Of a DNA stretch of 64,000 nt, positions 42,401-45,400 are shown one piece after another (position 1 is the first letter of the stretch; every line of letters begins with the position of its first letter). Under the pieces are notes generated by a model, which made no database searches, was not told the DNA's origin, and saw only the letters and a list, made by a program, of their open reading frames with translations. Location of the stretch: the NCBI GenBank assembly GCA_965112155.1, contig OZ218098.1. The stretch is one strand, 5' to 3'. The position numbers and the translations under genes were made by a program. The DNA is from Podarcis liolepis. Lineage: Eukaryota.

Positions 42401-45400
42401 TTCCCTTGCAAACACATGGGGTTCATAAAATTACTATAAAAGATCCTATTTTTATTCATAATCAGATTTAGAATATACAAAAGCATCAACAAGTATTTTG
42501 TAAACCAAATGGGTGTAGCCTCTTGTTTTCATAGATGTCCATTTCTGTTTGGTTTCTCTGTAGAATGCTTGGAAGAGCTGGGATGTCTTGTTGAATCATA
42601 CGGCATGAATGTGTGCCAGCCAACTGCAGGCAAAGTCTTAAAGGAAATTGCCATTCATATTGGTGACAGGGACAACACTGTCAGAAATGCTGCACTCAAC
42701 ACCATTGTAACAGTTTACAATGTTCATGGAGACCAAGTGTTCAAGCAGATTGGAAATGTGAGTAAACCAAAATAGACAGGCAATATTTAAAATATTGAAT
42801 GTTTAGTAGTGTGTCACTCAGGTAATGTCATGAATGGATAATCAGGTTCCTCAGGTCAGTTGCGATTAATGTTGAAAGCTCTGTTTGAGTGTCAAGAGCA
42901 AATATACTTTTCTTTTTTCTAATGATGAATTCTGAACTCTAGGACAGTTATGAATTGTGAAGCAGGAGTAGGTGCTGTCTTCCTTGTAAGGAATGTGTAT
43001 TTATAAACAGCAACATACAAAAGCAGTTTGGCTTCTCTGTTTGCTTTGAGCCTTGTAATTCAAAATACTTTAGGACTATTAGAGCAGGGAGGAGCTGAAG
43101 GTAATTGCATCAGTCACAGGAGAAGGCACATACAAGCCACTCATCCTCGTCTCACAAACTGGCCGTGGCATACTGATGCAGTGAGACAGCTTGAGACACA
43201 AAGCGGAAGCACATAATATATTCCATGATTCTTGTCTGCATTGAGAGGTGCACTGGGAGTAATAGGAGCACCTGGAATGCACCATAGGTAACTGCAATGC
43301 AAAGAGAATAGGTTGGTTTCCAAAATTGACAAGGAATTTGGGGAAGCAGTAGCCCCTTTGTTTTATTACATAGTTGTGCATATAGGAGAAGATAAAGTTG
43401 CTCTCAGATCTTATAGAAAAGTAGCTTCACATGGTTGTCCTCTGAGGTGCCATTTGATAAGAGGGGCTGGGGTGCACTTGCCTACAGGAAACTAGAAGAG
43501 GAAGTTCTCAGGGGAAATGACCACCTTCAGTCTTTGGTTCCTTTTAGTCCATAACCACTCTTTTGATTCCTAATCAGGATTATATGGGAGGCAATGAAGC
43601 TTTGGCTTTTCCTTCCTTCATGAATACCTGATTTCTCTAATTCCATCAAATTCTTCATAAATAGATGTTGCTTTTTCAGTGGTTCAAACTATATAATTGT
43701 TCACTAAGCAAGTATTATTGGAATCATATTTTCCCCCCAAGATTGCTGCTTCTCCAAATTCCTTTAGCCTGTTTCCCAAACTGGACTATGTTTCCTTCAC
43801 AGTGCTGTAGAGGGTGGTGTTGTGTTGGTATTTTATTTAATTAAATGCCAGATTCTGCCTGTTCCTACTTGATGCTTGAAGGAATTTTGGTACACTTTAT
43901 AACTAAACAGGCAGTACAGCAGTAGGCATAATTGCTGAGTACAGGAACTAGGCTAAGGGGTGGGGTTAGCTGTATTGTAAGTCTAGTAGTACACAGGAAC
44001 AGCAAAGGTTTTGAAACACTCTTAATGGCATTGGAGTCTGAACTAAGGAGCATACCTGTCATGGCACTGAAAAGTTGCTGCTCTTGTACAGCTTTCAGAG
44101 AAAGACCTGAGCATGTTGGAGGAGCGAATAAAGCGGTCTGCTAAGAGGCCAAATGCCACTTCAGCAAAGCAGGTGGAAGAGAAACCACAGAGGGCTCAGA
44201 GTGCCAGTGCCAATGCTAACATGCTGAGGAAAGGACCAGCTGAAGACATGTCTTCCAAACTCAAGTATGTAAAGTGGGAAAATGCAATGTTTGCCTGACA
44301 TTTCCACAGTCTGTGCAAAAAGCATACCTTGCTGTTGCCTTGTGTTTGTGTCTTTTGTTTTAATCATCTATGTCTGTATGTGTCGCAAACTGCAAAAAAA
44401 TGCTGCAAATCAAAATGTTTGAACCTTACTTCATTTGTTTTGTCGTGTCTTGAATGCTTTCTAAATGGTATTGTGCCTTTTTTCACTGCTTCTCCATGGA
44501 CAGAATTATGTATCGCACTTATAGGATGTAAGTACTGACCACTAAATCCTTGGTAGCAGGGCTCTTATAGCTTTGTCTTACCTTTCCCATGCCCTAATCC
44601 TAAACATACTTGAGAATAAGTCCCACTGATTTCAGTGCAACAATTCATATTAAGTGTGCTGTTTGGGAAGCCTGGCTTCAAGTTCCATCTTTGCTGTGAA
44701 AATCATTGAGTGGTGTCAGGCAAGTTGCTGTTTCTTGGCTATGTTTTTGTTTTTTTTAAATAATACTGATAAAGTGGCTTACCGCTCAGCTGTAAAAGAG
44801 CTAAACTTTGCAATTTTCAGGAATCTGACTAGTGTCAGCAGGGATACATTGTAAGACCAGATTGCTTTAACCCTTCCAGTCTTGAGTCACTGGTAGAAGA
44901 TTTGAGATACCTGGAGCCTGATCAGCATCAAATGTAATGCAACAGCTATTATTTGGGAAGCTCATATAAGGAAATTAAGAAGTAAATCTAAGCTTAAAAC
45001 CACTTCTGGAAATGGAACGCTTCTTGTTCCTAATGCCATGTGCTTTTTTTCTATTCTAAAATGCCCTTTTGTGTAGGCAGGCTCTAGCAAAATAGGCATA
45101 ATGGGGAGTTGAATTTGGAGAGTGCAAAATTCATTCTAGGGCATTTTGTGCTTGCTGGGCTGCATTTACTGTAATGTCTTTCCCTTATATGGGAAGAGAG
45201 CCGAATAATGAACCTACCAGGATTGTTTTACTCTCACATTCAGTTTAGCATTGTGCAGTAGAGCATGTCTTTGCTGCTGCCCCTGCTGCAAGGCCTATAG
45301 GTGTTGAGGGGAAGCCAGCAGCACATTATCAAAAACTTCTGGATTCCCAGCACCTATGGTAATTGCTGATGGGGCTGAATAGATTTCCTTATCTATGTTG

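Follow-up and report, generated by a model that had tools for sequence, protein, structure and literature searches.

The window, a 64,000-nt stretch of Podarcis liolepis DNA (assembly GCA_965112155.1, contig OZ218098.1), contains the gene encoding CKAP5 (ch-TOG/XMAP215) and, between its coding exons 32 and 33, a 24-nt cassette microexon (Table 1). The spliced gene model was built against proteins matching the peptide of the downstream exon. Among the 167 candidates of that search 163 matched, all of them CKAP5 wherever names were informative, and the best (98%) came from Podarcis muralis. The model and this P. muralis protein (P0002), in which Pfam family PF21041 matches five stretches, are identical at 1903 of 1935 aligned residues. 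When the microexon is skipped, the junction reads SSKL-N-QAR, the asparagine being residue 1465 of the model; when it is included, the junction reads SSKL-KIMYRTYRI-QAR and is free of stops. An earlier note on this DNA had placed the 24-mer, its phase and this change of peptide here, and reading the sequence bore out all three. That note numbers the host intron as intron 33, which is correct provided that one non-coding exon precedes the coding ones, the exon before this intron being number 32 of the coding exons. Such a first exon is suggested by GC-rich sequence in which a donor-like site lies near 7936.

Table 1. Features of the CKAP5 locus (positions are those of the window)
Feature	Position	Strand	Remarks
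CKAP5 (ch-TOG/XMAP215) host gene, 43 coding exons, 2034 aa	15383..56593	+	spliced model, no internal stop
Likely second cassette exon, 69 nt, AG...GTAATA, phase 0-0	38466-38534	+	after coding exon 26
Upstream constitutive exon (coding exon 32; TOG5 end and start of TOG5-TOG6 linker)	44092..44264	+	
AG-free zone ahead of microexon acceptor, 179 nt	44323..44501	+	constitutive acceptors (n=42): 13-80 nt
Conserved upstream intronic block: pyrimidine tract, TGC at 44474 and 44487, weak CAG acceptor	44444..44503	+	55/60 identical to L004
Microexon acceptor CAG	44501-44503	+	sequence read
CKAP5 microexon, 24 nt, cassette, phase 2-2	44504..44527	+	Asn1465 -> KIMYRTYRI
Microexon donor GTAAGT	44528-44533	+	sequence read
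Donor GTAAGT and conserved downstream intronic block	44528..44567	+	36/40 identical to L004
Downstream constitutive exon (coding exon 33; remaining linker up to TOG6)	45824..45997	+	
Coding exon 35, 180 nt, phase 0-0, TOG6 start	47868-48047	+	missing in some proteins, e.g. P0024
Candidate of 18 nt, AG...GTAAGT, with upstream TGC	52791-52808	+	after coding exon 40

Several other splicing features of the gene were observed. In the model, coding exon 7 is followed by a GC donor (21799-21800, + strand) and coding exon 10 by an unusually weak GT donor (gtgctg; 23003-23004, + strand), which may have been misplaced by the model-building script. The likely 69-nt cassette exon would lengthen the basic linker 4 by 23 residues and so lies, unlike the 24-nt microexon, in a described lattice-binding linker. 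At this junction three snake proteins (P0051, P0059 and P0073) carry a nearly identical insert of 23 residues, and the frog protein P0078 carries a different one of 32 residues. The position of this exon may match that of the 36-residue insert found in maternal XMAP215 of Xenopus. Coding exon 35 is absent from some of the fetched proteins and is therefore probably alternative; its skipping would remove 60 residues of the gamma-tubulin-binding domain. The 18-nt candidate outscores the real microexon, but an insert at its position occurs in none of the 120 listed proteins, and it is probably a chance occurrence. For zebrafish ckap5, an ovary-specific exon is reported (PMC9501657).

At 24 nt the microexon falls within the 3- to 27-nt range of its proposed class, preserves the reading frame (both flanking exon junctions are in phase 2) and is bounded by canonical splice sites. 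A degenerate 22-base pattern for it had this locus as its single match across the genome of 1.57 Gb. Splice-site strength was scored with donor and acceptor matrices trained on the gene's own 42 introns, which favours those constitutive sites. By this measure the microexon acceptor scored below all 42 constitutive acceptors. The donor had been called perfect, which is true of its intron side; its overall score is mid-range, with 19 of the 42 gene donors scoring lower. Candidates of the form AG-(3n, 3-27 nt)-GT that scored at least as high as the microexon numbered 13 of 1106 in the sense direction of the 42 introns and 15 of 991 in the antisense direction. As the antisense control does equally well, splice-site scoring was rejected as proof of the microexon. 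The TGC motifs said to lie in the upstream pyrimidine tract are present, at -30 and -17 from the microexon, and a TGC between -25 and -6 also precedes 11 of the 42 constitutive acceptors, which makes the motif alone weakly discriminating. Neither TGCATG nor GCATG (Rbfox sites) was found in 44300-44503 or 44528-44700. Motifs alone do not lift the microexon above chance; it stands above chance because of its conservation and its long AG-free zone.

Conservation of the intron was assessed against a single record, the metagenome-derived L004, which was the sole match. This record is bird-like, as its upstream exon encodes a peptide that agrees with bird proteins in 25 of 26 residues. The microexon is identical to it at 23 of 24 positions, with both proximal TGC motifs kept, and the remaining aligned parts of the intron are identical at 42/98, 23/43, 37/83 and 64/150 positions. 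The alignment of the intron that had been proposed as a check, run here against L004, thus shows the 24-mer and its splice-site flanks as a conserved island. Compared by eye with published 24-mers, the lizard microexon is identical to that of mouse at 23 and to that of zebrafish at 22 of 24 positions, and the three sites that vary among the window, mouse, zebrafish and L004 all fall on third codon positions of the predicted frame and leave the amino acid unchanged.

The peptide is conserved as well. Among the 120 proteins listed of the 163, exact KIMYRTYRI was found at the junction in seven, from five species (a snake, two frogs, orangutan and donkey); 111 had the skipped form, one had a different insert and one started after the junction. 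The search covered proteins of 101-2000 residues, and full-length isoforms (~2030-2040 residues) were therefore excluded from these counts. The seven insert-bearing proteins, which are database annotations, include snake P0057 and mammalian P0087, P0106 and P0109, and KIMYRTYRI is invariant in all seven where neighbouring linker residues vary. P0058 was not counted: its extra residues at this junction form another peptide, apparently the product of read-through into the beginning of the intron. A silent relic or a chance match that is never spliced in could account for a splice-site score inside the chance range. It would not be expected to keep its splice sites, reading frame and UGC block intact, to be conserved with the bird-like record, mouse and zebrafish sequences, or to encode the same peptide that is annotated in snake P0057, and we consider this explanation extremely improbable. 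To judge from these comparisons, 44504-44527 is almost certainly a real orthologous exon.

The exon has known counterparts. The suspicion that it may already be catalogued in mammals was correct: tables of PMC9303857 list a 24-nt CKAP5 microexon as retina-enriched (RetMIC) in human (HsaEX0015457) and mouse (MmuEX0011484). In these tables its inclusion (PSI) in retina, neural and other tissues is 67.67, 13.5 and 0.67 in human and 55.98, 16.66 and 0.72 in mouse. The dPSI was +25.29 with SRRM3, +31.17 to +70.35 across seven cell lines with SRRM4, and 0 in two cell lines with MSI1 (PMC9303857). According to a figure legend of the same paper, inclusion of the CKAP5 microexon was demonstrated by RT-PCR in HEK293 cells; the human primers, located by eye, fall in the two exons that flank it. 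In zebrafish eyes at 5 dpf, the PSI of DreEX0021859 is given as 44.27 in the wild type and 12.2 in the mutant (PMC9303857), 'MUT' being taken as the srrm3 mutant from the abstract and headings of that paper. Its retina-microexon table, in which chicken and zebrafish are also scored, has CKAP5 entries for human and mouse only.

The second source, PMC12626420, places MmuEX0011484 at chr2:91599604-91599627, as do the tables of PMC9303857, and prints the mouse and zebrafish 24-mers in its supplementary file 1. That study chose the microexon for its differential splicing in the developing mouse brain and its conservation in zebrafish. For the zebrafish exon, the tables of PMC12626420 score the canonical UC/UGC layout as Yes/Yes and give a larval inclusion that rises to 0.34 by the '72' column. 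We infer that both papers list the same zebrafish exon despite their different assemblies. The mention of CKAP5 found in PMC8911335 concerns a circular RNA only. Measured against HsaEX0015457 and MmuEX0011484, the lizard microexon agrees in gene, junction, length, phase and sequence, the nucleotide sequence being compared with that of mouse.

Matches to the SRRM_C domain (PF15230) above the cut-off were found at two loci of the lizard genome, L002 (C17) and L003 (C16), which we take to be the SRRM3/SRRM4 pair, as expected. The upstream arrangement typical of SRRM3/4 targets, a conserved UGC with a pyrimidine tract, is likewise present at the microexon. The weak acceptor would make skipping the default for the CKAP5 microexon, and SRRM3/4 would, we are confident by analogy with published data from human cells and zebrafish, overcome this weakness by way of the UGC/pyrimidine block. 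The claim of a frame-preserving, SRRM3/SRRM4-dependent microexon was right in this respect, as induction by SRRM3/4 is published for human and a drop in the srrm3 mutant for zebrafish (PMC9303857).

The designation 'neural' in the earlier note stood in part. Neural inclusion is above zero in human and mouse, and 'retina-enriched' describes the exon better because retinal PSI in both species is far above neural PSI (PMC9303857). Extrapolating from the human and mouse pattern, we expect that the lizard retina probably includes the exon at a high level, its other neural tissue at a low level and the remaining tissues hardly at all. A pan-neural lizard microexon without retinal enrichment would fit the selection of the exon from developing mouse brain and its conservation in zebrafish (PMC12626420), the nonzero neural PSI in mammals, and the lack of a CKAP5 entry in the retina-microexon sheets for chicken and zebrafish (PMC9303857). 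As the CKAP5 entries are those of human and mouse alone, retina specificity may indeed be weaker outside mammals. However, retinal inclusion is three to five times neural inclusion in human and mouse, and a PSI of 44 was reached in zebrafish eyes (PMC9303857), so that we regard a pan-neural pattern as rather unlikely. Taken as a whole, it is very likely that 44504-44527 is the lizard orthologue of HsaEX0015457, MmuEX0011484 and DreEX0021859, skipped in the majority of tissues, included chiefly in retina through SRRM3/SRRM4 and predicted to add a short, basic helix to the ch-TOG linker.

In the ch-TOG protein, TOG5 ends near residue 1427, and the insert lies ~38 residues after TOG5 and 52 before TOG6, which spans 1517-1802 in human (PMC11921806). 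The position claimed for it, in the linker after TOG5, is thus confirmed as the disordered TOG5-TOG6 linker. According to PMC13376574, ch-TOG binds the lattice through TOG5 and gamma-TuRC through TOG6 together with additional C-terminal regions. Basic lattice-binding linkers have been described after TOG2 and TOG4 (PMC13376574; PMC7773332), and the microexon insert lies outside these. The TOG5-TOG6 linker itself is net acidic (11 K+R versus 15 D+E), its charge changing from -4 to -1 with the insert. Insert-bearing ch-TOG may differ in lattice or partner binding, as had been suggested.

Structure was predicted with AlphaFold2 for a natural pair of frog isoforms, P0080 and P0079, that differ only by the insert, one model being kept for each. 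A helix at 312-327 appeared only in the isoform with the insert. Its pLDDT was ~34-36, and pLDDT was below 50 across the linker in both isoforms. The hydrophobic moment of the helix region was ~0.5-0.57 with the insert versus ~0.2-0.3 without it. In these single-chain models the helix docks on nothing and the insert has no confident fold. An IQ motif arising from the new I-Q-A-R junction was rejected, as were RVxF, YxxPhi and SxIP motifs in the insert; their consensus positions, compared by eye, are not occupied as required. A search of the main texts of open-access papers found no study of insert function. On the basis of the models, replacement of Asn1465 by KIMYRTYRI could create a basic amphipathic helix that folds on a partner and tunes the coupling between lattice binding by TOG5 and gamma-TuRC binding in the TOG6 region in photoreceptors, a reading that we favour tentatively and hold at somewhat less than even chances.

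Alternatively, the insert could work by charge only, its three basic residues (K, R and R, net +3) boosting non-specific lattice binding beside the lattice-binding TOG5, 38 residues away. Basic linkers do give lattice affinity in the XMAP215 family (PMC13376574; PMC7773332). The pure charge model is weakened, however, since the TOG5-TOG6 linker stays net acidic with the insert. Moreover, the invariance of all nine residues, hydrophobic ones included, across the vertebrates compared exceeds what a charge effect requires, and linker 4, which is much more basic, brought hardly any gain in lattice binding in vitro (PMC13376574). An effect of charge only is therefore doubtful.

The element could also be conserved mainly for RNA-level reasons, namely the binding of splicing factors, with little effect of the peptide on the protein. 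The intronic flanks are as conserved as the exon (Table 1), and polymerase activity tolerates scrambling of linkers (PMC13376574). Furthermore, single microexon deletions in zebrafish (n=45) had little or no larval phenotype in most cases; the ckap5 line is marked there as a 'Truncating' deletion, not a microexon-only one (PMC12626420). Against this, the three variable exon sites are all synonymous, and a retinal inclusion of 56-68% puts the insert in most of the ch-TOG there (PMC9303857). We consider a purely RNA-level role quite unlikely.

The CKAP5 microexon and its regulation are already known, and the lizard copy fills an expected gap. The interest of the partner-binding helix that we tentatively favour lies in its host: ch-TOG is the principal polymerase and co-nucleating factor of microtubules, most of it carries the insert in mammalian retina, and the nine residues, unchanged from fish to mammals, lie between two domains that have now been linked to nucleation. 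Should the insert alter nucleation or partner binding, this would provide a concrete mechanism by which the Srrm3 programme maintains photoreceptor outer segments. More speculatively, and in our view improbably, KIMYRTYRI might be a photoreceptor-specific helical docking motif between TOG5 and TOG6 that turns the polymerase into a nucleation or anchoring form at the basal body and cilium. If true, this would amount to a splice switch on the XMAP215/gamma-TuRC module, within reach of existing single-filament nucleation assays.

The closest known systems are HsaEX0015457 and MmuEX0011484, with which the lizard microexon shares the gene, the junction, the length of 24 nt, the peptide and the upstream UGC and pyrimidine block. 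The mouse exon was compared as sequence (23/24), and the human exon through its length, its RT-PCR primers and mammalian proteins. The difference is one of species only: tissue pattern and SRRM3/4 dependence were measured in mammals, whereas the lizard exon is known from sequence. Zebrafish DreEX0021859 likewise has 24 nt, 22 of them identical, the same peptide and the UC/UGC layout, but is not among the listed zebrafish RetMICs (PMC9303857). More generally, the exon resembles the SRRM3/SRRM4 microexon programme in its length, its frame, a UGC near a weak acceptor, a cytoskeletal host gene and insertion into a disordered surface loop. It differs from that programme at large in that the CKAP5 microexon belongs, in mammals, to a retina-biased subset and is not pan-neural.
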